From: Clavelina lepadiformis
Taxonomy: Eukaryota
Reading direction: 5' to 3'
Assembly: GCF_947623445.1 (NCBI RefSeq)
Contig: NC_135244.1
Location: forward strand, 13,142,860-13,206,859
DNA length: 64,000 nt
The position numbers were made by a program, and so were the translations under genes. Numbering within the stretch: position 1 is the first letter of the stretch; each line of letters starts with the position of its first letter. A model generated the notes under the pieces. It did not search any database. It was not told the DNA's origin and worked only from the letters and a program-made list of their open reading frames with translations. Positions 3,450 through 50,400 of the stretch are shown in pieces.

Positions 3450-4530
3450 AATTACCGAACAGATGTGTGGTTGGGAAGTTCAGGCTATCCTAGCATCGGC
3501 CTTCACATATCACTGTTTGCGAACTCGCGACATCAGTTCCAAGCACTTTAACATTATTGCTAACGAGTCCGTATTAGTACTATACTGTTATCTGATTTCA
3601 CAAATACAGACTGGAGGCGTAAGAAAACTATTTAATTGCCCTACACTGTCAAAAAAACGTTCCGTGAGGAAGCGGCCATTGTTATAACTACTCGCCATAC
3701 TGGAGTTCTGGAAGTAAGAACTTTTGCCGCTTTTTTGTAGTGCCTATCCAGGCACAACTCCTATCAACGCAACATCCACTCTTTCGGAATAATTCACTGC
3801 TAAAAAGCTAAAATGGACCTAAAATGCCATCCTAAAATGGTGGATGAAACTTGTGAATGTCATCGACTTTCCACACTCCAGCTGCAAGGCATTGTGAAAC
3901 AGCCATACTGGCCGCTAAGTTCACTTTCCTCATACGTGTTCCCTCCTTACAAGTGCTAATATCAACCAACTGGTTAAAAACCGGATGCAGGATAAAGGCA
4001 CCACAAGTCGACTGGACTTTTTGCAAAGGAAGTGTCTGACCTATGGAGGGTAAAATACCTGACGGTGAAAACACCTTGAACAATTTCTTCCCAGATGAGT
4101 TTGCCGTTGCCTTCCAGCAAGCAAGGCCAGACAAAGCCCGGACCCAAACAATGCCTACCGGAAGTGCTTGCTTGCAACACTATATACTCCCTAAAACCTG
4201 ACAAAAAGCTATTTGACAATTCCTATTTGCTATCCGAGATCCTCACAATCTGCTACGGGACCCAAACAGCTATCGTCCAATACCTCTTCCTTGAGTTTCC
4301 TTCAAGATCCTCGAGCGCCTGATCTACGACCGCGTGAAATCCATTGTCGATTCCCGACTACTACTAGAGCGGGTCGGGTACAAGTCAGGAGGGTAGGAAG
4401 TTAACTGAAGACCAGATCACTTTTATGACGCAAGACATCAAGGACAGTTTCAAGGACAGGCTAGGCAAACGTCCAGTGTTCTACTTTTCACCTTACATCC
4501 GCCTGCGATATATTATGGCACCGCGGCATT
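3450..4530 (+). mobile_element. degenerate non-LTR (CR1/RTE-like LINE) reverse-transcriptase fragment
   Basis: Around 4150-4400 the + strand encodes LINE RT domain 0/1 motifs (KPDKKLFDNSYLLSEILTI; FKILERLIYDRVKSIVDSRLLLERVGYKSGG; TEDQITFMTQDIKDSF), interrupted by stops and frameshifts. No intact ORF. Boundaries are approximate. Confidence 0.45.
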
Positions 4531-5871
4531 GGGTAGATTATTACTACTGAAAAATGAGGAAAAACACGCAAACATGCAAGATCGATAAAATATTATACAA
4601 TTAACGGTAGAGTCGAGTAATTAGCGCAAACACAACGTTTAAAACGAAGTGAATGAACCAAGTGAAGTAACCAAGTAGTCACGCCAATGTCACCGCGTGG
4701 TGGCGCCATGCCTGCCCGCTTCTTTATCTTATGCCAGACAGGCACATGGTCCGTATGATTATGGTGTATGTCTAGGGTTGTCATACGTACGGATTTTCCC
4801 GGACATTTCGGTGTTGAAATCTGTGTCAGGGCATAATTCTAAAAATTACTCTAATGTCCGGAATTTTTGCATCTATTAAGTTATGTTTAACTTGAAATAA
4901 TAAACTCGTGTTGTGAAAATGAAAGTTTCAACTTTTTACGGACTTCTAGGCCTATCGGCTAAAAGACCTCGCCCTAGCGCTAATCTAGTGTAATTTTTCA
5001 GCTAACTTTGTTTTGTGACATAGTGATTTTCATTATTTTGTAATTATTTGAATTGGCTTTTTTATTTTTCCAGTCATTCGACTATGCTAGTTTATTTTTT
5101 GTGGAATCAATTTTCCTGTTCGCTTTATGGTGACTAAACCTACCTTTGTATTTCGTAACTTTTAGGTAGTGATTGTGGCAAAATTGGCCTTTTCTACTAT
5201 GGTAACCCTATGTATGTTTAACACCGGAACTTTTCCTTTACCACAAGTCAAGCTTAGCAATATGCTACACGACTCCGCAAGGATTGGTAATGGAAATATT
5301 TTTGTAAAGTCTACACCCAAGATATACCGAACACGATATCGTCCAACTTCACCTACGCGGGAAACGTAGCAATGGTTTACTAGGCAAGAAAATTTGTAGC
5401 AGTGGAGGCTAACACCCTTTACCAGGGGAAGACTATTATAGCTGTTTACTTCCAAAAAGGGAGATTGAAGCTCAACGAAACTAAGTCTGGGCAGTCTTTC
5501 ACCTTAGCTACAAGAAAGCAAATTATTAGCTCAAAGCTAGCATCAACAGCACGGCTGTCCTCTCCCCAAAATACATTGTGGTGACCTTGGACAGAGCGCA
5601 CATGTTTTGCCGATACCTTTAGTAATTATGCAAGGTACATTTCACGTTGGTTGGGCATTAAATTTTTGAAAGTGGCTATTTCGCCGTGCGTACAGGTGCA
5701 TTACGTGGACTGTTATTAAAGATTGGCACTTTAGTGGGGAGAATTGACAACTTATACCAACGATGTTACTTTAATCAACGAAAGGTAACAATGACGCTTT
5801 GGAACACAGCGGATAAACATTCAGCGCGCTGTATTTAGAGTAGCTGGGGCTGGGCATGCGAAGATAAATAA

Positions 5872-6078
5872 CCTTGAGTCTCATAATCTCAAGGTCGTTG
5901 TTCTGCTTTTCTTAATCTTAGAATTAATTGTTCACTTTGACAACTGTATATTCTGATTATATTGAAGCTTCTTTGAACGAATACATCTAGATAAAGCATT
6001 GGTACAGCAACTACAGCATAAAGACGTCCATGTTGCGGCGTTGTTCGTAATAGCAAGAAAAAGAATGAATAACTCAAA
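5872..6078 (-). repeat. truncated solo-LTR fragment of the 16432..17990 LTR element family (inverted orientation)
   Basis: About 207 bp, roughly 90% identical to the reverse complement of LTR positions about 110-320 (ctcaaggtcgttgtt...gcggcgttgttcgtaatagcaagaa...gaataactca). Confidence 0.55.
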
Positions 6079-6299
6079 ATGCACATCAATAACCAGGAAG
6101 CAATCGATTACGTCACCCAGTGTTATGCTTCGCTGATTCGATAGATGAGAATTCTATGTCTTACACAATCTTATATTAATTTATAATATTATCACAATCT
6201 GTTTAATGAGTAGGCTACCCCGCTTCTGACAATTGCAAAAATCATAAAATTTAGGAAATTGAAAATCTGTCAGCGGAATCGGGTAACTTTTTGGGAAGT

Positions 6300-7025
6300 C
6301 ACTGTTTTTCTATCGTGTCGCGCTTGAATTTTGCTCGATTCTTAGGAGTAGGCTAACTTTTAAGACTCAACTCTTAAGAGTACACCTTAATTAACTCAAA
6401 ATTACTAGGCCTATCCTTTTCGATCAATTGGGTCGAGCAAAAAGGATACTATTGTAAAGGTGAGTAAGTTCCTGTTAATGTTAGCAAATAAAAAATTGAG
6501 AATACCGAGTTAGATTTCTCATCAGAACCGATTAAAATTTTTGGTCAAATCAATGCATTTCTATCGCATCATGCTTGGATCAGCTGATCGTTTTTCGGAG
6601 TTGCTTAACGTTAATCAGCTTAAAATTACTAGTTTTACTACCATTTTTGATTAATTGGAACGAGCAAAAAGAATACCATTGTGAAGATGAGAAAATTCCT
6701 CTTAACATTAGCAAATAAGAAAGTGGGTAAATGAAATTAAATTTCTTACCAAAGATGATTAAAATATTTTGCTGAATCACTGCATTTTTATTGTGTCACG
6801 TTTGGATTTTGCTCGGCTCTTAGGAGTAGGCTACAAGTTAGCGTAATTAGCTCTAAATTGCCACTTTTTTGATCAATTGGAGCGAGCAAAAAGGATACCA
6901 TTGTTAATGTGAGTAAATTCCTGTTAATATTAGTAAATAAAAAAGTGGGAACACCAAGTTATATTTGTGAGCAGACAAAATTTTTGGTTTAATCACTGCA
7001 TTTTCCATCGCGCTCGTGGAGAACT
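6300..7025. repeat. tandem satellite, about 235-bp unit x about 3.1
   Basis: Three consecutive units share cactgcattt..tatcg.gtc.cg.ttggattttgctcg..cttaggagtaggcta ... tgatcaattgg.gcgagcaaaaaggata..attgt.aa.gtgagtaa.ttcctgttaat.ttagcaaataaaaaa.tggga, plus a partial fourth unit start. Confidence 0.8.
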
Positions 7026-15662: not shown

Positions 15663-16150
15663 CCAAGGGTCGGCAACCTACGGCCCGCGGGCCGGATCCG
15701 GCCCGTCATGCGAAATCGTCCGGCCGGAGACATATTAATTAGATATCACAAGAATACGGCCCGCCCTTTCTTATTGAGTTTCAAACTGCAGTGTTAGCAC
15801 TGTTTGAAAAAATTGTGGTATTGTTACGCCATAAAACTGGTGCGAAGGCGGTAGACTAGTAGCCTATCTCGTACTAAGTACGAGATTGTCTGTAGAGTAG
15901 ACTAGACTAGTCGTTATAGATACAAATAGAGATGCACACGAGCTTTAACCTAAACTTTTTTATAATGCTGTGTTGTTGAAGTGTGAATACATATATTTTG
16001 CTCTTTTTGTGATTGGTATGATTGAGATTGCAACAATGTAGCGTAATATACTGAAGTGAGTTTGAATTATAGTACTGTATTAATGAAAATTCCGACCCGC
16101 CAAAGAGTTGTACACTCGACATTTGGCCCGTGATTAGCAAAAGGTTGCCG
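15663..16150. mobile_element. MITE-like element (about 490 bp), terminal motif (C)AGGGTCGGCAACC
   Basis: 5' end aaccaagggtcggcaacctacggcccgcgggccgg. 3' end ggcccgtgattagcaaaaggttgccg is a partial inverse. The 3' 190 bp (15961-16150) recur at 43061-43250 with an intact terminus ...aacgttgccgaaccctg. Confidence 0.45.
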
Positions 16151-16201: not shown

Positions 16202-16381
16202 AAAATGACTGAAGCAGGAGCAAGCAAGGGGAAAGATTTATCGTTATCTGACAAAATTCTTGTCATTGGCGAACTTGACAAGAAAACATCTCATATCGCA
16301 TTTGCCAAAAAGTCACAACTATCACCAATTTTAAAGTCCAAAGAAAAACTTTTGACTGCACATCGTAAACCCATCGCGTAA
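16202..16381 (+). pseudogene. pogo/Tigger-type transposase N-terminal HTH (CENP-B/psq-like) fragment
   Basis: MTEAGASKGKDLSLSDKILVIGELDKKTSHIAFAKKSQLSPILKSKEKLLTAHRKPIA resembles the KRKxLTLxEKxxIIxxxExGxSxxxIAxxFGxxxSTxSxIxKNKEKI box of pogo-family transposases. Truncated by the LTR element at 16432. Confidence 0.35.
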
Positions 16382-35375: not shown

Positions 35376-36032
35376 ATGTTAGCGCCAAAAAATAGCACAA
35401 TCAGTGACCACCAATCAACGTATCAAGATCAAGGTGATTCCATTTTAGTTCAAAAAACTAGTTTAACTGTTTATCCATTAATATGGAACGATCAACAATA
35501 CGAGGAATTTACACGCAAAAACAGTTGGATGTACGCTATAAATGGAAAAATAGGATGTACTCCGTGTCGTGAAGTAAATAATTTGGGAGTATGAACAACC
35601 CGTGGTGTCAATATTTCTACTCAATGGGCAGTGTCACTTCTTATGGTAGCACAAGAGAGATTCAGCTCTCATCACTGCTCAAAAAGATCTACGAACACAA
35701 AAACTCCCAAGCACATAAATAAGCTATCACTCTACTTAACGGCGAAGAAAGGCGTATTGATTAATTTGAATGCACAAACTGAACAAACTGCCTTTCAATC
35801 CACTGCTCAAGTTTTCAGAATAGGGTATTATGTGTCAAAAAATAACAAACCTTTCACAGACTTTGAAAGTTTGATTGACCTTCAGCAAGCTATTTCCATA
35901 GACATGGGACGTGTATTACACAGTAAAACTATTGCCCTTGAAATAAATGGTCATGTATCTTCACAGATGAGGGAAAAACTTTTATCTGAAATTATCGAGA
36001 GGAGGAGCAAGATAAAAGTTCTAGCCGACTAA
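35376..36032 (+). pseudogene. hAT-derived transposase fragment (TTF-type zinc finger plus DUF4371-like region), stop-interrupted
   Basis: One frame reads YPLIWNDQQYEEFTRKNSWMYAINGKIGCTPCREV (TTF-zinc-finger-like), then a stop, then ...YYVSKNNKPFTDFESLIDLQQAISIDMGRVLHSKTIALEINGHVSSQ (DUF4371-like, as in ZMYM1/THAP0-type domesticated hATs). No DDE/hATC part and no TIRs seen. Confidence 0.45.
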
Positions 36033-41400: not shown

Positions 41401-44400
41401 GGCTAGATTACTGTACTGCATGTGGAAAACTTTTCACACAAACTTAAACCTTAATTTGGCGTTAAGGAAAACTTCCTTTGAGTTAGACACCCTTAATATA
41501 GGTATTATTATTTTACTTAAAATAATAATCTTTTCTAGATCAATGACATTTCTTTGATTGATCTGGTTGAGTTATGTTTCATTGTTATAAATATGGTTCA
41601 AAATGATGATATTGGTGATGGAAAACTACTTGCTGTATTTCAAAAGGTTCGATGACTTATTTATGATACTCCAAAATGGTACACTACATTTATACTAAAC
41701 ATAAGTAATCAATTATGTTTGTGTTGTGCAATTTGTACCACACAATCTGACTTTATATGTGCGTTTGTAACTAAATGTTTTTATTATTAGATACTGGTTA
41801 CTGTGCAACAATGTGGAAGTGTCAAGCACTACAAGTTTGATGGCAGCATGAGTGGAGCTGAATTCAAACAACAACTTACAAAAGACTTGTGTTCATTTCG
41901 CTGGCCTTGTGGTTCTGTCATCCACTTGACAAGCATGTTCAGGTTTGTTCTTAAATGTGAATATGTTGCTTTTTGACATATGTCAAGGTATTTGACAGGT
42001 TTGGTGACACTTAATCACGCGACACTTAATCACGCGACGCTTAATCACCGACACATAATCACTAGGACATTTAATCACGCGACACTTAATCACGCGACAC
42101 ATAATCACTAGGACATTTAATCACGCGACATTTAATCACACATTTACAGTATCGAAAATTGCATGTCTACACACGAAAAAACAAATATAAACCTGAAAAG
42201 AAATTGTTAAAATGATTAAACATTGCTTGCGCAGATAAGGCTACCGTACACACTAGGTAACAATGTCATGCATAGGAAATGTAAGCAACTGCACGAAGAT
42301 AAACTAAAATCTCGCTTGACAGATAACGGTCAACTGTGTTTTGCACGCGCAGTTTCAGTGCCTTGTACCGCATTGGAATAGAAGGTTGAGTACCAGGAAT
42401 TCCTTTGCAGAAACGTTGCACGTTGCATTTGAATGTCTTTTTCAATTCCCTGTATGAAAGTCCACAATGTCGGGTGGTGGCATTGAAAAAGCACTTGGGG
42501 ACCAAAATGCCAACCTTCGACTGCATTTGTGGTTCTTGCAATGCAACCTGCCCCGGCTTCGTAATGATTCCAACTTTCGATTGGAAAGATGGCTGAGCCG
42601 TAATTTTCACCACGTCCCGGACGTCGTCTGCCTCTGATATATGTGTGTTCGAAATACGAAAGCAGCTCAGGCATCTTCTCGTGATCGGGCATGCTATCAG
42701 CTAAGATCAGAAATGACTCGACTACGTCAGAGGAAGGGACCATGGCTAAGGCTGGTAAACACCGAACAGCTGTTCTTAATTCGTCATTAGACTCGTAGTC
42801 ACATTTCATGCCAATTTCATTAACTTTGCGCAGGACGCTTTGCGTTAGGTGAAAATAACAACTCCTAACATTTGCTGTAGGAAATGCAGTGCGGAAAGCA
42901 CTTACTGCGGCAGTCTCAAAATCGAGCAAAACGCATTCCGAGCTTGAATTACTGAATTTTCCTCACGCTTTTCCGACATTCGTTCTCTACAAAATAAATT
43001 CAGGCTATTCAGTACTCTGTTTGATGTGGATGCCAATACCATTCCCGAAAAATTTCAAATGGACCTTATTCAAGTGTGAATACATATATTTTGTTCTTTT
43101 TGTGATTGGTATGATTGAGATTGCAGCAATGTAGCGTAATATACTGAAGTGAGTGTGAATTATAGTATTAATGAAAATTCCGGCCCGCCAAAGAGTTGTA
43201 CAGTCGACATTTGGCCTGTGACTAGCAAAACGTTGCCGAACCCTGCTATAGACAAAGGCGCTGTCCAAGTGCTGTCGCATCCAAGTGATTATGTGTCGCG
43301 TGATTAAATGTCGCGTGTATAAGTATCCAAGTCGCGTGATTAAATGTCCTAGTGATTATGTGTCGCGTGATTAAATGTCCTAGTGATTATGCGTCGCGTG
43401 ATTAAGTGTCGGTACACCATTTGACATTCACGCAAAAAAGTGCCCACCTGTAGATACAGGTTTAATAATATTTCATTTAGAAGAAACAAGGGATGGGCCA
43501 GTTGCTTGTCGGCCATATCTAGAATTTTTTTAGAAAATTCGGCGAGTTTAGCAGTTTTTTTAAGATGAAATTACCATCAGCTGTTTACATTGCACATAAA
43601 ACATGTGGCTGATTGGGAATATTGTATTACACCAAGTGGTAACCTTTTAAAGTAATTTGTTTTAATGTAGTAACTGTCACTTGTCACTGTCAGTCATGTG
43701 TGGAGTCAATCTTGCAAGACAATTAGATTTCGGTAATGCATTTTATGCATGTATGTGTGAAATGGGTGTAGGTCTTTGTTTGGTTTGTGGCGTTAGAAAA
43801 GTGTTAAACGTTTGTTTCCTGGAAAACTTGTTGTATGAGCTTGACCATGAAGCTAGTGTAGGCAATTACTGTGTCATTGTCCATTTCAACCAAGTTTTTT
43901 CTTCTGCCGAGTGATGCCATACTGTTTTTTGCCTACATTGAATAAATTGATGCTTCATACTGAAAACATTAACCACCTTCTCATCGAGGAATTGATGTAA
44001 AAAATAGTGATCCTATTTAGGAGGAGGTCGTTAGTCCGATTAAAAGTGTCGTAACTCAGAACAGGCAAGAGAAGGTCTTGTGTAAGCAAACAAGTTGTTT
44101 GTCAACTAAAAAAATAGAACATTACAGTTGCTTTCATCATCAATTTTACCAACTTGGAACTTGCCCTCTCTACACATAAGTAATTGAGGGGGCAAAGAAG
44201 AAGATTTCTTCAGATAATTCCTTCGTGCTTCCTGTTACAAGCTTTGTTTCAGCGTGACAAATGTCTAAGTTTTACAATATCTGTACAAAATTCATCTCCT
44301 ATTTGCAAATAATTAATCTAATGGCCAAAAAAATCTGTCCGATCTGGTACACGCGACGCGTGAAAAAAGCGTAGCAAACAATTGGTACGCTGCCTTATAA

Positions 44401-47400
44401 TTAAGATGAATGATTTTATCCAAGAAAGAAAAAATTGTTTAACCTCAAAATCATCTTCTTAATTCTGTGAAAGATCAAGAAATATTGCCAGATTTTGCAG
44501 ACTTTATTTCATAATTTAGTACAAACCAGACTCCAAAAAGAGTTCAAAATCTTGCCAGATTGTATTTTTTCAAGTTCAGGCCCATCCCTAGAATGAACCC
44601 CATCAAATTCTTGGTTATCCCAACCTCTTACTACTAACTGTTACTACCTCTTACTACCTACTGTTTTTTGTATTTGATATTATTTTGCAGGGAAATTTAT
44701 CTTAATCCATCTGAGGCAGATATAGTCACTGCAAAATTGCTCGAAGAACTTAACGGCATCAACGCCCAGGATATTCCTCCTTTTATATTTCAGCTTGTAG
44801 GTTTTGCTAGCGCTTACAACAAATTTCAAACAGTACTTTGGGGAATTTTAAGCCACTTTAATGCTTTAGAATTACAAGCAAATACAGGATCACACACAGG
44901 TATCAAAGCAGTTCAAGTGATTGTAATCTCATCCTTTGTTTAAACTTTTCAGCAATAAAACAACATAAATACTTTTTAAAGACCCAATTGAAATGGACTC
45001 TGGACTCAACAAGGTTATTAACCATCTTGAATTAAAAAGCATGGAAGGCACTGTTCTCATTTATTTTGGAAATGCTATTCGACAGAATCAGTTAATTGGA
45101 AAAGGGTTTTTGAAGATTATGAAAGTTAGTAAAATTCAAATACAGTAAAGCTTGTTAACCTGATTTGCATAGTTAGAATTTTGAATAATTCAAAAGTGAT
45201 TTAACCAGTTGCAAGAAATCTATTACAATGCATGTAATTTGTAAACACTTACCAATAACTTGAACTCCAAGTGTCTGTATGGTTATTTCAAAATTAATTG
45301 AAAAATCTTTCACTGTAAACACAAGCACTGAATTAATTTCATTGATGGATTCTTATAGACTAAAAACATTAAAAAGGTTGTTCTGTGTTATGTACTTTAA
45401 TGCCTCTTGACCTTAAAACTCTCCACTGGACTCGAGCGTTTAACATTTAAGGAGGTGTATGAATTTCAAAAAAGGGTAAATTTCTTTGTTTATTTTTTAT
45501 GTAGTAAAATGCAATTACTTGAAAACTGCACCATGGGGATCCTGAATGTTTGCGTGTCAACTAGGCTTGCCTGATACCAACTTCTACTAAAATATGACGA
45601 AAATCACTATCTCTAGTTTACGTTATGTAGGCCCAAAGCCAAAAGTGTATTTATTAGTCTAAGAACACACATTTTCCTCTTTTTCATGCCCTTTTTTAAC
45701 TAACTTATGCATTTGACCTGGAACTTTGAAACACGCCAACTGCTAGGGGAATTTCCAGGCTAAAAAACAACACCAACCATGCTGAGAGCTTAACAGAATC
45801 AGAGAAATCTTATATAGAAACCTAATAGCACCCTGGCAATGCTTTTTTCAAAAACATAACTCATTAATTTGACCTACCACATGAGTAAAAAGCCAAAAAT
45901 TCCAAAGCGACAGACATTTTTACATCACAATGAAATTATCTCTTGCAATACTCTAATGTAGCATGCCAAAAATTTCCGATTTAACCCATTTACCAGCAGA
46001 TAGAAATCATAGTTCTGTCATCAAATGCATTTATTGCAGTACCAAAGCAAAAATTGATTACTGAAAAACGTGATTCGTGAGTGAAAACAATTGAGGAAGC
46101 CTTTACAACTAGCCCCATGTTGACTATGGTTTATTTTGCTTTGCTGATATTGAGACTTGGTAGTTGTTAGATGAACCTTGGTTGGTTTCAGTTATGCTCA
46201 CGATTCCTTGTCCTGCACACAAATAATAAATGAATGAATGAATGAATGAATTAATAGATAAACTAACTAACATGCCCTAATACAAAGCATTTTGCTACAT
46301 AACAATCAGCAGATAAAAACAAATAAAAAATTGCCCATGTTCTGCAACCTACATTTATTAAATTTATCCTTATCATTTGATGTGCAACACCAGAAATAGT
46401 TTGCACTCAGCTATATGAGCTAGGTATGGCCGGAACACCAAAGAAGTTGACCTTTGGATGAAAGTGAATGCTATGTTCAAGCCATCCATTCATTCAATCC
46501 ACAAGTTCTATTAATAATAACATGAAAACACCTGACTTGAACAGGTTTTGCATGGAAGCACCACGAAACCAATCAAGCAGTGCAAACCTCAGACCTCTGT
46601 GCAAACACAGATTACAACAACCAAAATACTCCAAACTCTACAGCAGGGGTGTTCAAATGATTTCTGCCATGATCCACCACAACCAAACCTGACAACATGA
46701 TGATCCACTAAATACGAATAGTAAATATATTGGACATGCTTTAATTTTTATGGTGCTTTATTCATGAAAATGTACCCTACAACATAATAATAACTTTGTA
46801 AAAGTCAAAAGTCTCCTTGACTTCAATCAACACCTGGTCATGCAAATCCTCAGCGATATCAGTGCATCTCCGTGTACATGTCAATCTGGAGAGCGGAAGA
46901 GTTGTCATGCTAGTGATCACTTCTTTCTTACTTGGATGCATGATTTTTACTGCTTCAACAATGCATTCTTTAACGACTTCAGCATGACTGTATGTCATCA
47001 TCCGCTTGCCCAGAATGTGATTGATGCTGAGTGTTGCTTCTGTGGCTTTTGATTGCTCAGACACAAATGTTGAGAGACATTGTCTCTGTGAGCTGGCAGA
47101 CTCATCTAAACAAGCAACTTTCTGTTTTCTGGCCCATGAGCCAGGCTTGTATTTCTTATTAAAATGTTTATGATGAGTAAAGAAATGTCGTTTGATGTTT
47201 TGACTCTTTATCATGCTTAGAGTGCAGTCACACAACAAACATTTGGGTTTATTGCCTGGGTTGAGCACAAACAAGTACTCTTCAGTCCATTCACTATTGA
47301 ATTGTCTGTTTTCTGAATCAATTCTGCGCTTCTTACTGGCCATGTTAATAATACCTCTAATGATGCGAGAAAGGGAACAGAATGGCAGCCTCAAACTTTT

Positions 47401-50400
47401 TTTTCTGTTCAATATTCAATGCTTTCTTGCCTTTGTGTTTCTAATTGAACAAATGTCTGCGTATCGACCAACAAACAATGTCTGCGTATTGACAGCCACG
47501 TGTTAACCCTATCCTAACCGGGCTCGCGACTTTACTATTTTAACTAGGTTGTGGCCGACCCTGCACACACATTTTCAATCGTTAATTACTTGAAAACTAT
47601 ACGTCGTAAACTGATCGGATTTTTACATGTTAGTCGCAAAAACATCTGGCTTCCTGTATATATCATAATTGTAAAATTAAAGAAAGAACATTTAGTGTAA
47701 ATTAAGTATTTCTACAAGTGATACATTTCTAGAAGTTTTTCTTGTTTCGCCGCGGCCCCCCGCTGTGCAGAAAACCAGCTGACCGCGCGAAGAGAAGACA
47801 AGAGAATAGTTAGTTAGTCGAGTTAGTGGTGCGTAAATGAGTAAACGAAAACAATACGCTTCAATGCTGAGAGGGAGCAAAATTATGCTATAATAAATTC
47901 AAAAAATTAATTTCAACACTGACAATTAGTATCCACATGAAAATACTGTAAAAAGTTTTTTTTTCAAGGCTACATTTGAAGATCCACACAAAAAGTTGAA
48001 AAGATCCGGATCCGGATCGCGATCCGCCATTTGAACAACCCCGCTCTACAGTATACATATTTTAAGACTAGAACCATCCTTGCATGCAATATTTCTGGGT
48101 TTAATAGGACAGTAGTTATGTTTATTGTGGCTCAGTTGTTTACTCCACCTCTTGCAAAGTTTAGCATAGATGAAGTATGGATAATAAAAGTAAAATATCT
48201 GCAAATATTTTCCATAAGCTTTCAATAGTTTGAATTTGAAATAAATCAAACTTACTGAGTTGATTTATTAAATGGTATTTTCAAACCAATAGATGTTGAA
48301 ATGAAAGAAATGACTGACCTGACTAGTGGTGGAATTGAAAAAATTTAACTTCTGCATCCAACGCACAGAATTAGTGCCACTGATTCCAAAATGGCCTGCA
48401 TCGGATGCGATAATGGTTTTCAAGGAAATTGAGGCATCACCGTGAGTCAGTTGCTGCGTCTCACCAGTGATGTCTGCTTTCAAGCAGGAATCATACGTAT
48501 CGTCATCATACAAGCTCTACAAGCAAAACACAACAAACCCAAGGAGAAAAGCACTAAACCTTTAGGTTACGACGGCTGTGCTGGGTAATAGTGTAAGAAT
48601 CATGCAGGTGATTCTCAATTTTATGGATTTGCCCAGCCCATGCACATTATCTTTAACAAATCTCTCCAAAGAAACAGTGAGCGTTTACGAATACTACAAT
48701 GAAATGTCAATGTCTGGAATAGAGGAAGGGCTACAAAGCCGAAAAAAGCATGTGGGAGAAAAGCCTTCTGTACTTAATTCACTGCAAGCAGAAAGTCAAT
48801 ACAACACCTCAGCATCGATCATCAACAAACCTGGACAACTTGCATCTCAATTAACCGGTGCAGTGGCTGGGAATATGACTCCTTGCCGAAGGGCATCCTT
48901 TGTGGCAAATCAAACAAAGGAGTGGAAATATTGCAAACACCATGAGCATCCCAGTAAAGTGTACATCCCAGAACTTGCGCCTATTGGAAATAAAGAAGAC
49001 ATTGGCAAGGAAGGGAGTGGTCAAACTCATCCATTAAAAAAAGATGACTGCACAACTCACCGGTTCAAAGTACTTTCCAAAGCCATGAAGAAACTTGCAC
49101 TAAGTGTCAAAAGGTTCTGCCATGAAACCAGCTCTAAGCAATGAGATAGAAATGCGACTTCTCTTGCACGTGAATCAAATCTTATACTCCAAAAAGAGTT
49201 TTGTGCTGCACTCAAAAAATATCCAAACATTGCAGAAAACTTATTCTGACAAATGAACGTTGTTACTGAAACCTGTCTCTTGTGCTTGCATGGTGATCAC
49301 ACCCAAAGCCACTTGAGTTTGGTCTGTAACAGTCCAAAGGTGACATACAAGCCGGCATGCTTTCAGCCTTCAACTTTGTTGCGTCTAAACAGCAATGATA
49401 AACAGTTGTGGAAAGCTATCATTAACAATTTATCTCCAAGAACAACATTGTTACAATGGTACATAATAAAACCACCAATAAAGTCGAATTGCTAAATTTT
49501 TTCTTGAGACAGGTGATACCTAAAGGAAAAAATTACTGAAGTTCTGCAACGGGCAGAGCGTCTAGAGCCATATTTTAAAGGAATGAAGGTCTTGTGTTTG
49601 CATTTATGGCAGTATCAGAATTTCCTGAGCCGAGCCATGACAATGGGTAAGAACACTACAGAATCTGGCAAAAGATAGAGCAGTGAACATAAGCGATGGA
49701 GTTCATATCATATAAGGCAACATAGATCAGCAAGAAAACGGCTGTTGTCGTATACGAAGGAAAACCAGCCAGAAATTTATGCCAGCAACTCGAACATCAA
49801 GAACTATAAAGGTATGAAGATGCTGGTGTATTAAGCAGTGATATTTTTGACTAATGTACTGAAGTTTTAAATCTGTATGGCTAACAAACACAATTACTGT
49901 ACGAGTTCTGCCCATTACAACTTCTACTCTCTTGCTTGACTGATCTTGGCTCAAGTGAGAAGGTTCGACACACAACTTTTGTGGTGAGTATCTTATTATT
50001 CGAATTCTGACCTCACCAAACTTTCTTGCACAAACACCATGTATGATACAACATGAACGCCGAGAACTTTTTTGTGTACTCTCAAAGCACCCTACCCATT
50101 CCTCCCTGTCACACAGAAAATAATCAACTGTCTTACACTTACCCATTATTCTATGTTGCAGTACTGCAACAGTCGTTGTAACTATGATTTTTACAACGTG
50201 TACCACTGTGTACAATGAAAATTGATCTGCTCTCATTGTGCTACAGTATTATTGGTCTATCTATCTGCCCGATTGGAAAGTTTGCTAAGTGCTTGGGGGC
50301 TTAAAGTTATTTGCACGTATAATTGCTAGTGTATCATTTTTACACAGTTCATTTCTCACCAAAACAACAAACTTTCCAGTCTGGGTTATCTTTTACAACA

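Follow-up and report, generated by a model that had tools for sequence, protein, structure and literature searches.

A probable non-autonomous FLYWCH/Phantom-Muta-type MULE with subrepeat-built termini at the FANCI locus of Clavelina lepadiformis

The locus

The sequence analysed here is a 64-kb stretch of the Clavelina lepadiformis genome, referred to as the window. At 41998-43418 it holds a transposon whose bounds were defined independently, from the termini of three other C. lepadiformis copies (Table 1). A putative exon matching the Pfam profile FANCI_S1 lies before the element and the next FANCI_S1-matching ORF (44668-44943, match at approximately 44690-44880) lies after it, from which we infer that the element is intronic in FANCI, in antisense orientation to the gene. 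The two profile matches (E=8e-9 and 4e-9) fall at consecutive positions, 86-120 and 120-181.

An 8-bp direct repeat, ATTTGACA, adjoins both termini, and a composition-based estimate puts the chance of such a flank match at ~4e-5. A 9-bp duplication was considered for this copy and rejected, as the two candidate 9-mers are one base out of register and share only the 8-mer. The initial annotation had recognized a MULE remnant with long terminal inverted repeats (TIRs) of tandem subrepeats, flanked by a target-site duplication (TSD), and this description is borne out by sister copies that share its ends. Its details needed adjustment: an element is indeed present at 41990-43425, but its measured span is shorter and excludes the TSDs, and the flanking direct ATTTGAC is a real duplication abutting the termini, with a length of 8 bp rather than 7.

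Outermost at each end of the window copy is a terminal motif of 8 nt (GGTGTACC / GGTTTGGT, consensus GGTKT...); inside it come subrepeats of 15-16 bp, arranged in phase, whose core is TAATCAC. The array unit comprises a 13-nt core, GACAYTTAATCAC, and a 2-3-nt spacer; repeat finding (TRF and a repeat finder) gave a period of 15-16 bp, with higher-order periods of 31 and 46 bp, and did not recover the 19-bp unit proposed earlier. With at most one mismatch allowed, GACAYTTAATCAC occurs 15 times in the window, always within 42006-42139 (+) or 43285-43410 (-), compared with 0.24 occurrences expected in shuffled sequence. The first unit of the 3′-side array begins 8 nt inside the terminus, and successive units are spaced by 15,15,14,16,15,15,16,15. 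The inverted arms extend for up to 60 nt at 95% complementarity. The TIRs of ~140 bp and the 8-bp TSD agree with the long TIRs plus the TSDs of 8-10 bp by which MULEs are recognized. The 18-mer originally reported from these arrays corresponds to one unit plus the beginning of the next.

Between the TIRs lies part of a transposase gene. The remnant retains the second aspartate (D254), the CxxH motif and E388, and is without the FLYWCH finger and the first aspartate. A window-specific +1 frameshift results from a 1-bp insertion near 42406, beyond which reading goes on in another frame to a stop at 42266. Because the finger and the first catalytic aspartate are gone and the frame is shifted, the window copy cannot make transposase. 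Its coding capacity had been described as the C-terminal 199 aa of a MULE transposase; the uninterrupted ORF does have 199 codons (42330-42929, -) and is MULE transposase, with homologues up to E=2e-88, but the homologous remnant is longer and frameshifted. The Pfam MULE match of the 199-aa ORF is weak (E=0.006, below cut-off) and covers its first 30 aa only, at the C-terminal edge of the domain. On the 3′ side, ~97 bp (42174-42270) have no BLAST match in the autonomous copy described below.

Table 1. Positions of the element's parts and of associated features in the window
Feature	Position	Strand	Basis or remarks
Putative host exon (FANCI solenoid 1)	41791..41942	+	Pfam FANCI_S1; AG/GT boundaries inferred from sequence; ends 55 bp upstream of element
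TSD, left copy, ATTTGACA	41990..41997		Same 8-mer at both termini; sister copies with different perfect 9-bp TSDs
Terminal motif, transposase-3′ end: GGTTTGGT on + strand, ...ACCAAACC in transposase sense	41998..42005	-	Identical in L001, L007, L012 and L008; also at L015 5′ end
3′-side TIR array: 9 phased units of 14-16 bp (GACAYTTAATCAC + GCG/TAG)	42006..42142	-	Repeat finding, motif search, unit spacing
Non-coding 3′ region	42143..42265	-	BLAST against L007; sequence comparison
Transposase remnant, aa 249-469 of 470-aa FLYWCH-MULE transposase	42266..42940	-	94% aa identity to P0121; 96.7-97% nt identity to L007
Foreign internal DNA, ~333 bp, in place of autonomous element's 5′ UTR and codons 1-248	42941..43273		No match to L007 4877-5742
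Repeat X block 2 (unrelated dispersed repeat)	43066..43238		91.6% identity over 178 aligned positions to 15973-16150
5′-side TIR: inner boundary GTCGCATCCAAGTG (common to L012) and 8-unit array, one unit degenerate	43274..43410	-	Repeat finding, motif search, copy comparison
Terminal motif, transposase-5′ end: GGTACACC on + strand, GGTGTACC in transposase sense	43411..43418	-	Same in L001, L012 and L008
TSD, right copy, ATTTGACA	43419..43426		Same 8-mer at both termini
Repeat X second copy: block 1 AGAGATGCACACGAGCTT (15928-15945) and block 2 (15973-16150)	15928..16150	+	Sequence matching

Sister copies and an autonomous partner

Three other Clavelina copies (L001, L007 and L012) carry the same termini, GGTGTACM... 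/ ...CACCAAACC, and each is bordered by a perfect 9-bp TSD of its own (GCGTCCATT, AAAATTTAG and AATTTTAAA, respectively). At the transposase-5′ end of L007, as in L002, the terminal motif is GGTGTACA. The window copy, with 8 bp, thus differs from the three others, with 9 bp; its value is inside the published 8-9 range, or may alternatively reflect the loss of 1 bp. Deletion derivatives with the same ends occupy different sites, at three loci, with their TSDs intact.

The initial annotation had asked for complete copies that share these termini and encode an intact transposase, and L007, from the same genome, is one. This element, at 4756-6507 of its locus, is 1752 bp long, has TIRs of ~70-125 bp, and contains an uninterrupted 470-aa ORF (P0121) with Pfam matches to FLYWCH (residues 9-69, E=8.6e-12) and MULE (188-281, E=4.2e-10, above cut-off). 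We take its motifs LADGT, LLDFE, CYFH and NAVEGWH to represent the DDE/CxxH positions. The window remnant matches P0121 over aa 249-469 with 94% identity and is tied through it to a protein with a significant MULE domain. P0121, the sole intact Clavelina ORF found, is one residue short four residues before the presumed catalytic E (IARTNAVEG, compared with IARTTNAVEG in relatives), and this leaves present-day activity of the element, which is possible from its sequence, in doubt.

We read 41998-43418, with a probability of about 0.88, as a non-autonomous internal-deletion derivative of a ~1.75-kb cut-and-paste MULE of the FLYWCH/Phantom-Muta type, situated inside a host FANCI intron.

Foreign internal DNA

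The ~333 bp that stand in place of the 5′ UTR and codons 1-248 share 39 bp (42941-42979) with the sister copy L001, and the foreign segments of the two copies each have parts that are absent from the other. A 173-bp stretch of the window segment matches a second locus in the window, and we refer to the sequence common to them as repeat X (Table 1). This second copy had been placed at 15961-16150 by the initial annotation; it is real, but the measured match runs from 15973 to 16150. The 18-mer of block 1, located 28 bp upstream of the second-copy block 2, also occurs inside the L001 derivative. The 173-bp match and the 18-mer in L001 together indicate, at the level of sequence matching, that one dispersed repeat gave at least two blocks to MULE derivatives. 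At neither copy of repeat X were TIRs or a TSD detected, ~100 kb of Clavelina sequence contained no copies other than these two, and a search of the window, L001 and L007 yielded nothing further of the repeat beyond these copies, the 18-mer and the 39 bp shared with L001. L012 and L013 contain no foreign DNA of the window type, apart from one marginal 19-nt match in L013. Just downstream of the second copy lies a degenerate ORF which, when tested for a pogo/Tigger-like origin, gave a weak, sub-threshold CENP-B_N match (Pfam, E=0.041), so this copy may be part of a larger transposon.

The same segment had been read as a piece of a MITE that had landed in the N-terminal region of the transposase gene. 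Comparison with L007 instead reveals that this region is absent and replaced, with no TSD visible at the junctions. A nested MITE insertion followed by deletions is a possible history, and one favoured by the 91.6% identity of the 173-bp stretch to another window locus and by recurrence inside L001 of the 18-mer found near the other copy, but we consider it the less probable one. Neither the 173-bp nor the ~333-bp segment shows a TSD or TIRs at its edges, ~866 bp of the MULE are missing at the same place, and the ~100 kb of Clavelina sequence yielded just two copies of the supposed MITE, one of which perhaps belongs to a larger transposon. In addition, heterogeneous replaced internal DNA is typical of non-autonomous derivatives of the mosquito element Muta1 (PMC5225508). 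Loss and replacement of internal sequence, as in other non-autonomous MULEs, would most likely explain the segment, rather than a simple nested insertion. The window copy resembles Pack-MULEs and other non-autonomous MULEs in keeping its TIRs and TSD while DNA of other genomic origin has taken the place of part of its interior. It may differ from them in the kind of DNA acquired, which matches another dispersed repeat in the window and no recognizable host gene, and it still has half of its transposase gene.

Terminal arrays in related elements

All four Clavelina copies, and seven further elements of other origin, have the composite TIR: a terminal motif of 8 nt and then 4-15 units spaced by 14-16 bp. 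Relatives from other hosts, with 51-77% amino acid identity, keep arrays with a 14-16-bp period and the GGT terminus, while unit cores differ between lineages (TAATCAC, TTCACCGC, CACTTGGTAGG and ATTCATCC). The first unit lies 8 nt from the end in nine elements, and spacing follows the series 15,15,14,15/16 in most arrays. Units were picked by pattern matching (≤3 mismatches), which inflates per-position conservation and affects the spacing result less. For the TSDs of these further elements, L011 has a perfect 9-bp repeat and L010 scores 8/9.

The FLYWCH domain is also found in the conceptual protein of L004 (Pfam, E=9.5e-11). When compared with P0121, three elements of the TAATCAC type are 60-68% identical in the FLYWCH region and 69-72% in the transposase core, whereas the corresponding values for the element with the TTCACCGC core are 33% and 57%, a contrast with n=1. 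The terminal motif and the phased plan are kept while the unit core differs between lineages, and this suggests that the subterminal units are transposase-binding sites, a role already proposed for the tandem units in the initial annotation and one that fits the comparative data. Conservation of architecture, the single domain-divergence contrast and analogy with described elements point to FLYWCH as the domain that would bind them.

Alternatively, transposition could depend on just the 8-nt motif at the terminus, and possibly the unit next to it, the remainder of each array being minisatellite without specific function that expands and contracts neutrally and gives a foldback-like structure lacking multiple binding sites. 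Unit number among the Clavelina copies varies from 4 to 15 per end, with only 4 at the 3′ end of the autonomous copy; the Clavelina arrays were recently homogenized at the 31- and 46-bp higher-order level; and Muta1 derivatives with truncated TIRs are still mobilized in yeast (PMC5225508). These observations accord with dispensable arrays, but the array plan, the 14-16-bp period and the 8-nt start persist across lineages despite complete turnover of the core. Moreover, units within the arrays of L008, L010 and L002 have diverged from each other, yet their TCAC core and phasing are kept, which argues for selection rather than recent slippage. We therefore regard dispensable arrays as unlikely and favour a role of the units as binding sites.

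A more tentative proposal, which we rate as doubtful, is that the geometry of the end is fixed (GGT terminus, first unit 8 nt in, spacing 15,15,14,15/16) and that the sequence read by FLYWCH has been replaced several times. If this were true, the transpososome would need a fixed-pitch multimer of FLYWCH domains at each end, and the family as it stands would allow the DNA-recognition code of FLYWCH fingers to be read.

Relationship to known transposons

The closest described parallels are Muta1 and Muta5 of Aedes aegypti (Liu & Wessler 2017, PMC5225508). Both, like the Clavelina element, have 8- or 9-bp TSDs and TIRs of ~145-151 bp in which an imperfect 8-10-bp terminal motif precedes ~9 subterminal repeats with a 15-16-bp period: in Muta1 (8-9-bp TSDs), the 145-bp TIRs comprise a 10-bp terminal motif and a 12-bp repeat present 9 times, with spacers of 3-4 bp, and in Muta5 an 8-bp motif is followed by 9 copies of a 15-bp repeat. 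Their transposases combine an N-terminal FLYWCH finger with a DDE core, the finger being predicted in 13/14 Aedes Muta families with transposases of 416-554 aa. They have numerous non-autonomous derivatives, whose repeat numbers vary and whose internal DNA is unrelated, and in yeast the Muta1 transposase mobilizes derivatives that vary in both respects. Genic regions are preferred by these elements, as is matched by the position of the window copy in a FANCI intron. The differences lie in size and gene structure (3.2-3.5 kb and 504-554 aa from 2-3 exons, compared with 1.75 kb and one uninterrupted 470-aa ORF in Clavelina), in unit sequence and in the host, a tunicate.

Tm1 of Meloidogyne, described as 'Mutator/Foldback' (Gross & Williamson 2011, PMC3169594), likewise has composite TIRs with a variable number of 13-15-bp tandem repeats, and TIR length differs from copy to copy and from one end of an element to the other. 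Outside the arrays stand short terminal motifs, of 7 bp in Tm1, which differ between the two ends; TSDs are 8-10 bp, mostly 9; and MITE-like and deleted derivatives exist. The 496-aa Tm1 protein has FLYWCH at 5-66 and MULE at 197-294, compared with 9-69 and 188-281 in P0121. The likeness is drawn from described architecture, and terminal and unit sequences differ; derivatives with a histone-hairpin motif and a purine-rich inner TIR motif are features of Tm1 that were not seen here.

Phantom elements (Marquez & Pritham 2010), as they are summarized in PMC6446971, share with the Clavelina element a FLYWCH + MULE transposase, 8-10-bp TSDs, TIRs within the range of 18-613 bp and a tunicate host. 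According to the same summary, Phantom Cs of Ciona savignyi differs in being 4006 bp long with 613-bp TIRs, compared with 1.75 kb and ~70-125 bp in Clavelina. An N-terminal FLYWCH finger, which characterizes the Phantom/Muta group, is present in P0121 and in the L004 protein and is lost in the window copy. Membership of this group (group 20 of PMC6446971) fits by domain content, TSD length, end plan and published descriptions. Of the two affinities first suggested for the element, that to Phantom is accordingly upheld, with a FLYWCH + MULE partner, 8-9-bp TSDs and a previous report of Phantom from a tunicate (PMC6446971).

The other suggested affinity, to Rehavkus, fares poorly. The characters recorded for Rehavkus elements (Repbase; an outgroup in PMC6446971) are a TSD of 9 bp, TIRs of 26-400 bp and a minisatellite, and the Clavelina copies do have 9-bp TSDs, long TIRs and minisatellite-like repeats. 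Rehavkus does not fit, however, because a PHD finger is absent from both P0121 and the L004 conceptual protein (Pfam, E≤0.1), whose matches are limited to FLYWCH, MULE and, weakly, ZSWIM1-3 RNaseH-like. Nor does the autonomous element, at 1.75 kb, approach the 5-18 kb of that group (4.9-18.5 kb for the elements listed in PMC6446971), and its repeats form both TIRs instead of a single minisatellite before the 3′ TIR. We consider assignment to Rehavkus very improbable and retain Phantom/Muta.

Finally, that ordinary minisatellites should lie by coincidence beside a transposase pseudogene, with ATTTGAC(A) a chance repeat, has nothing in its favour except that the initial annotation named it as an a priori possibility, and is refuted by the three further copies with identical termini and different perfect 9-bp TSDs, by the same architecture in the seven elements from other sources and by the excess of motif matches over the shuffled expectation.

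Proposed mobilization and significance

We propose that the window copy was mobilized in trans by the transposase of the autonomous element; the deletion derivatives at three loci, with their intact TSDs, are indirect evidence that non-autonomous copies are mobilized in this way. Several transposase molecules per end would bind the repeated units through the FLYWCH domain; after pairing of the ends, cleavage by the DDE core would take place at the conserved GGT termini, and the element would reinsert through an 8-9-bp staggered cut. Unit number would change by slippage or unequal exchange.

The element represents no new kind of transposon or mechanism, and ends made of 15-16-bp repeats are the normal design of its group. 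To the Phantom/Muta group it would add a family from a tunicate, one of whose copies is autonomous with an intact 470-aa ORF, and the comparison across lineages lends support to the view that subterminal repeats may be functional binding sites co-evolving with the FLYWCH domain. Only one convincing MULE was found in chordates in PMC6446971, and the Clavelina family may, judging from its sequence, be an apparently young and possibly active MULE in a chordate host.

For annotation, the stretch in the FANCI intron is a defective DNA transposon and is to be read neither as a gene nor as a regulatory minisatellite. P0035 and P0240, short Clavelina entries annotated as 'unnamed protein products', are fragments of the same transposon family.

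Termini and target-site duplications in Clavelina copies

A second C. lepadiformis copy of the element, L001, was found via protein P0035, which shares 97% identity with a portion of the window ORF. In alignment, L001 matches the window element at 96-98%; read in the same orientation, it starts with GGTTTGGTGACAC and ends with GTGTCGGTACACC, exactly the ends of the window copy, and has a perfect 9-bp repeat, GCGTCCATT, on its flanks. Two further copies, L007 and L012, have the same termini, with AAAATTTAG and AATTTTAAA, respectively, on both flanks. The bounds of the window element were fixed by the termini of these other copies, and its target-site duplication (TSD) is ATTTGACA, the 9-mers on either side being out of register by one base. 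The initial annotation had proposed a MULE remnant with terminal repeat arrays and a flanking 7-bp duplication, and we checked whether the flanking match might be fortuitous and the arrays ordinary minisatellites. With the same termini and separate duplications in L001, L007 and L012, every copy carries its arrays at the ends, and the flanking repeat of the window copy is not coincidental; its length is 8 bp.

Features of the window
Feature	Position	Strand	Details
18-mer AGAGATGCACACGAGCTT	15928-15945		28 bp upstream of the 16-kb X copy
Repeat X, 16-kb copy	15973-16150		91.6% identical to the copy inside the element
Degenerate ORF	16205-16380	+	Just downstream of the 16-kb X copy
133-aa ORF	35631-36032	+	hAT-family transposase fragment by eye; no Pfam match
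Putative FANCI exon upstream of element	41791-41942	+	AG/GT boundaries read from sequence
TSD, 8 bp	41990-41997 and 43419-43426
Element	41998-43418
First array	42006-42139		8.9 copies of a 15-bp unit; 46-bp higher-order period scores better (TRF)
Mechanical 199-codon ORF	42330-42929
Repeat X, copy inside element	43066-43238
Second array	43280-43411		Periods of 15, 16 and 31 bp (TRF)
Second FANCI_S1-matching ORF	44668-44943	+	Pfam
211-aa ORF	46777-47412	-	Spin-doc-type zinc finger, zf-C2H2_12, E=2e-7

Reading of the sequence (window 41700-43700) revealed two short-repeat blocks in opposite orientation, and a repeat finder reported inverted arms reaching 60 nt at 95% complementarity. A 13-nt core, GACAYTTAATCAC, occurs 15 times in the window with at most one mismatch, always within the two arrays, compared with 0.24 matches expected in dinucleotide-preserving shuffles. 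From these periods and the core count, the unit is 15-16 bp long (the core plus a GC(G) or TAG spacer) and not 19 bp as first described; the 18-mer originally taken as the unit is one unit plus the start of the next.

An autonomous partner and the coding remnant

Using the conceptual full-length protein of a metagenomic relative, L004, as a query, we retrieved P0121, an intact C. lepadiformis protein of 470 aa. A Pfam scan identified FLYWCH (residues 9-69, E=8.6e-12) and MULE (188-281, E=4.2e-10) domains and no PHD finger. The corresponding element, L007, is 1752 bp long, with 7 units at its 5′ end and 4 at its 3′ end. The window remnant corresponds to P0121 aa 249-469, with 94% amino acid and 96.7-97% nucleotide identity. 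The 199 C-terminal residues reported initially, a mechanical ORF, are indeed part of a MULE transposase and make up most of the remnant, but the remnant is longer: an extra base near 42406, peculiar to the window copy, causes a frameshift, beyond which the true C-terminus runs on to a stop at 42266. The LLDFE aspartate (D254), CYFH and the NAVEGWH glutamate (E388) are kept, while the FLYWCH finger and the LADGT aspartate are lost. We take the LADGT, LLDFE and NAVEGWH motifs to be the DDE triad, in line with MULE transposases in general and with the positions given for Muta1. Because the finger and the LADGT aspartate are gone and the frame is shifted, the window copy is non-autonomous.

P0121 (L007 5001-6413), the sole intact Clavelina transposase ORF found, is one residue short, reading IARTNAVEG where the window copy and relatives read IARTTNAVEG, and the gap lies four positions N-terminal to the presumed catalytic glutamate. 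Because a 471-aa variant, P0241, is present in a Logan assembly (locus L013), the active form may be a copy other than this 470-aa one. Within the L007 5′ UTR, moreover, 39 bp (AACTCTACCAGAAAAGTCGGTGCCAGGCTCGTATAACAA) exactly duplicate part of the FLYWCH-coding region (about 4900-4945 and about 5130-5175); L013 is without it, the L007 UTR segment aligning there to the coding copy only.

Probable replacement of internal DNA

Homology to the autonomous element ends at 42940 and restarts at ~43274, where the 5′ terminal inverted repeat (TIR) has its inner boundary and the window copy reads GTCGCATCCAAGTG, in common with L012. In between, ~333 bp of foreign DNA takes the place of an 866-bp stretch of the autonomous element that holds the 5′ UTR and codons 1-248. 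It includes a copy of the dispersed repeat X. The 18-mer AGAGATGCACACGAGCTT upstream of the 16-kb X copy also lies within the L001 derivative, adjoining 39 bp common to L001 and window 42941-42979, and since it recurs beside this shared stretch, X gave more than 173 bp. The foreign DNA of L001 and that of the window copy each have parts absent from the other. The interior had been interpreted as a MITE fragment inserted into the N-terminal region. A piece of repeat is present, but neither TIRs nor a TSD were found at either X copy, which leaves its MITE identity unsupported, a search of some 100 kb of Clavelina DNA gave no more X copies, and the N-terminal region is missing rather than interrupted. 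Replaced internal DNA is the more economical reading, ahead of nested insertion; internal DNA is likewise replaced in non-autonomous Muta1 derivatives (PMC5225508).

All three Clavelina deletion derivatives (L001, L012 and the window copy) retain the C-terminal half of the transposase and have lost the N-terminal half. The window (42940/42941) and L012 breakpoints are at most about 20 bp apart and their filler DNA is unlike, which suggests either common ancestry followed by replacement or a site prone to deletion. The degenerate ORF next to the 16-kb X copy (MTEAGASKGKDLSLSDKILVIGELD...) is followed by RKRARKSTHEDVEDVF in another frame, in a region that extends to about 18400 and seems to contain internal duplications as well. 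The ORF resembles the HTH part at the N-terminus of pogo/Tigger-type transposases, with a Pfam CENP-B_N match (E=0.041) below the cut-off.

End architecture across relatives

Eleven more loci with transposase relatives (51-77% amino acid identity) came from metagenome, ENA and Logan assemblies with animal hosts. The same end plan was observed in 7/7 distinct elements examined among them.

Ends of related elements
Locus	Termini	Flanking repeat	Unit core
L004	GATTTGGT... / ...GTACACC	7/8	TAATCAC
L008	GGTGTACC... / ...CACCAAACC	7/9	TAATCAC / TAAACAC
L010	GGTTTGGC... / ...ATACACC	8/9	TAATCAC / TCATCAC
L002	GGTGTACA... / ...GGTAAACC	4/9, degenerate	TAATCAC / TCATCAC
L011	GGTGTCCG... / ...CTAGAACC	perfect 9-bp CTAACTTAC	TTCACCGC
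L014	GGTATCCA...		CACTTGGTAGG, about 11 units per end
L015	GGTTTGGTGAC...		ATTCATCC, about 15 units

The first unit lies 7-8 nt from the terminus in all nine elements scored (four Clavelina copies and five relatives), and most of their arrays have a spacing of 15,15,14,15/16; as units were found by pattern matching, per-position information is inflated. In L008, L010 and L002, units have diverged within one array with the TCAC core and phasing kept, a pattern unlike that of a recently expanded neutral minisatellite. Clavelina units are more homogeneous and number 4 to 15 per end, so slippage or unequal exchange is probably at work too. Relative to P0121, the TTCACCGC-type protein P0208 is 33% identical in the FLYWCH region and 57% in the catalytic part, versus 60-68% and 69-72% for three TAATCAC-type elements. 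This single contrast fits co-evolution of finger and unit.

In L014, a distant family member, a 99-bp tandem repeat in 5.5 copies (2290-2824) separates the transposase stop codon from the 3′ TIR. The L004 MULE, whose transposase has three in-frame stop codons, lies, as judged by eye, inside a LINE-like retroelement, within its reverse-transcriptase ORF (1746-2237 and 4034-4624; L003 is alike), and the reverse-transcriptase frame runs on at both sides. Close transposase relatives are annotated in animals as remote as Thelohanellus kitauei (a myxozoan), Gordionus (a horsehair worm) and Latimeria (coelacanth), and many more are on marine metagenome contigs; this patchy host distribution is compatible with horizontal transfer.

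Comparison with known MULE groups

In Aedes aegypti Muta elements, TSDs are 8-9 bp in 14/14 families, TIRs exceed 100 bp in 12/14, 10 of these 12 long-TIR families have 9-15-bp subterminal tandem repeats, and 13/14 families encode an N-terminal FLYWCH finger (PMC5225508). The Muta1 TIR (145 bp) consists of a 10-bp imperfect terminal motif and nine 12-bp repeats with 3-4-bp spacers, and that of Muta5 (151 bp) of an 8-bp terminal motif and nine 15-bp repeats; the Muta1 DDE residues are D214/D283/E419 (PMC5225508). Non-autonomous Muta1 derivatives, with variable repeat number and heterogeneous internal DNA, are moved by Muta1 transposase in yeast (PMC5225508). Tm1 of root-knot nematodes shares the composite TIR plan of the Clavelina family, with 13-15-bp repeats whose number varies, 7-bp terminal motifs unlike between ends, TSDs of 8-10 bp and a 496-aa FLYWCH+MULE protein, and was assigned by its authors to the Phantom subclass (PMC3169594). 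Muta and Phantom form one clade, group 20, which already includes a Ciona savignyi element (PMC6446971). Rehavkus elements, in contrast, measure 5-18 kb and have a PHD finger and a minisatellite that precedes the 3′ TIR (PMC6446971), none of which applies to the Clavelina element.

Of the two likenesses first suggested, Rehavkus is therefore dropped and Phantom retained, on the FLYWCH + MULE partner, subrepeat TIRs and 8-9-bp TSDs as in Muta and Tm1. By all features tested, and on these rather than on phylogeny, the window element belongs with the Phantom/Muta/Tm1 type and presumably works like it. The main initial reading, a Phantom-like MULE remnant with subrepeat TIRs, was largely correct, and the element adds to a well-described kind.

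Genomic context

The two ORFs that flank the element match successive stretches of the FANCI_S1 (solenoid-1) Pfam profile, positions 86-120 (E=8e-9) and 120-181 (E=4e-9), which places the element in a FANCI intron, antisense to the gene. It lies 55 bp from the inferred donor site and fills about half of the ~2.7-kb intron, in agreement with the reported preference of Muta1 for genic regions (PMC5225508). The 211-aa and 133-aa ORFs elsewhere in the window are probably further transposon remnants.
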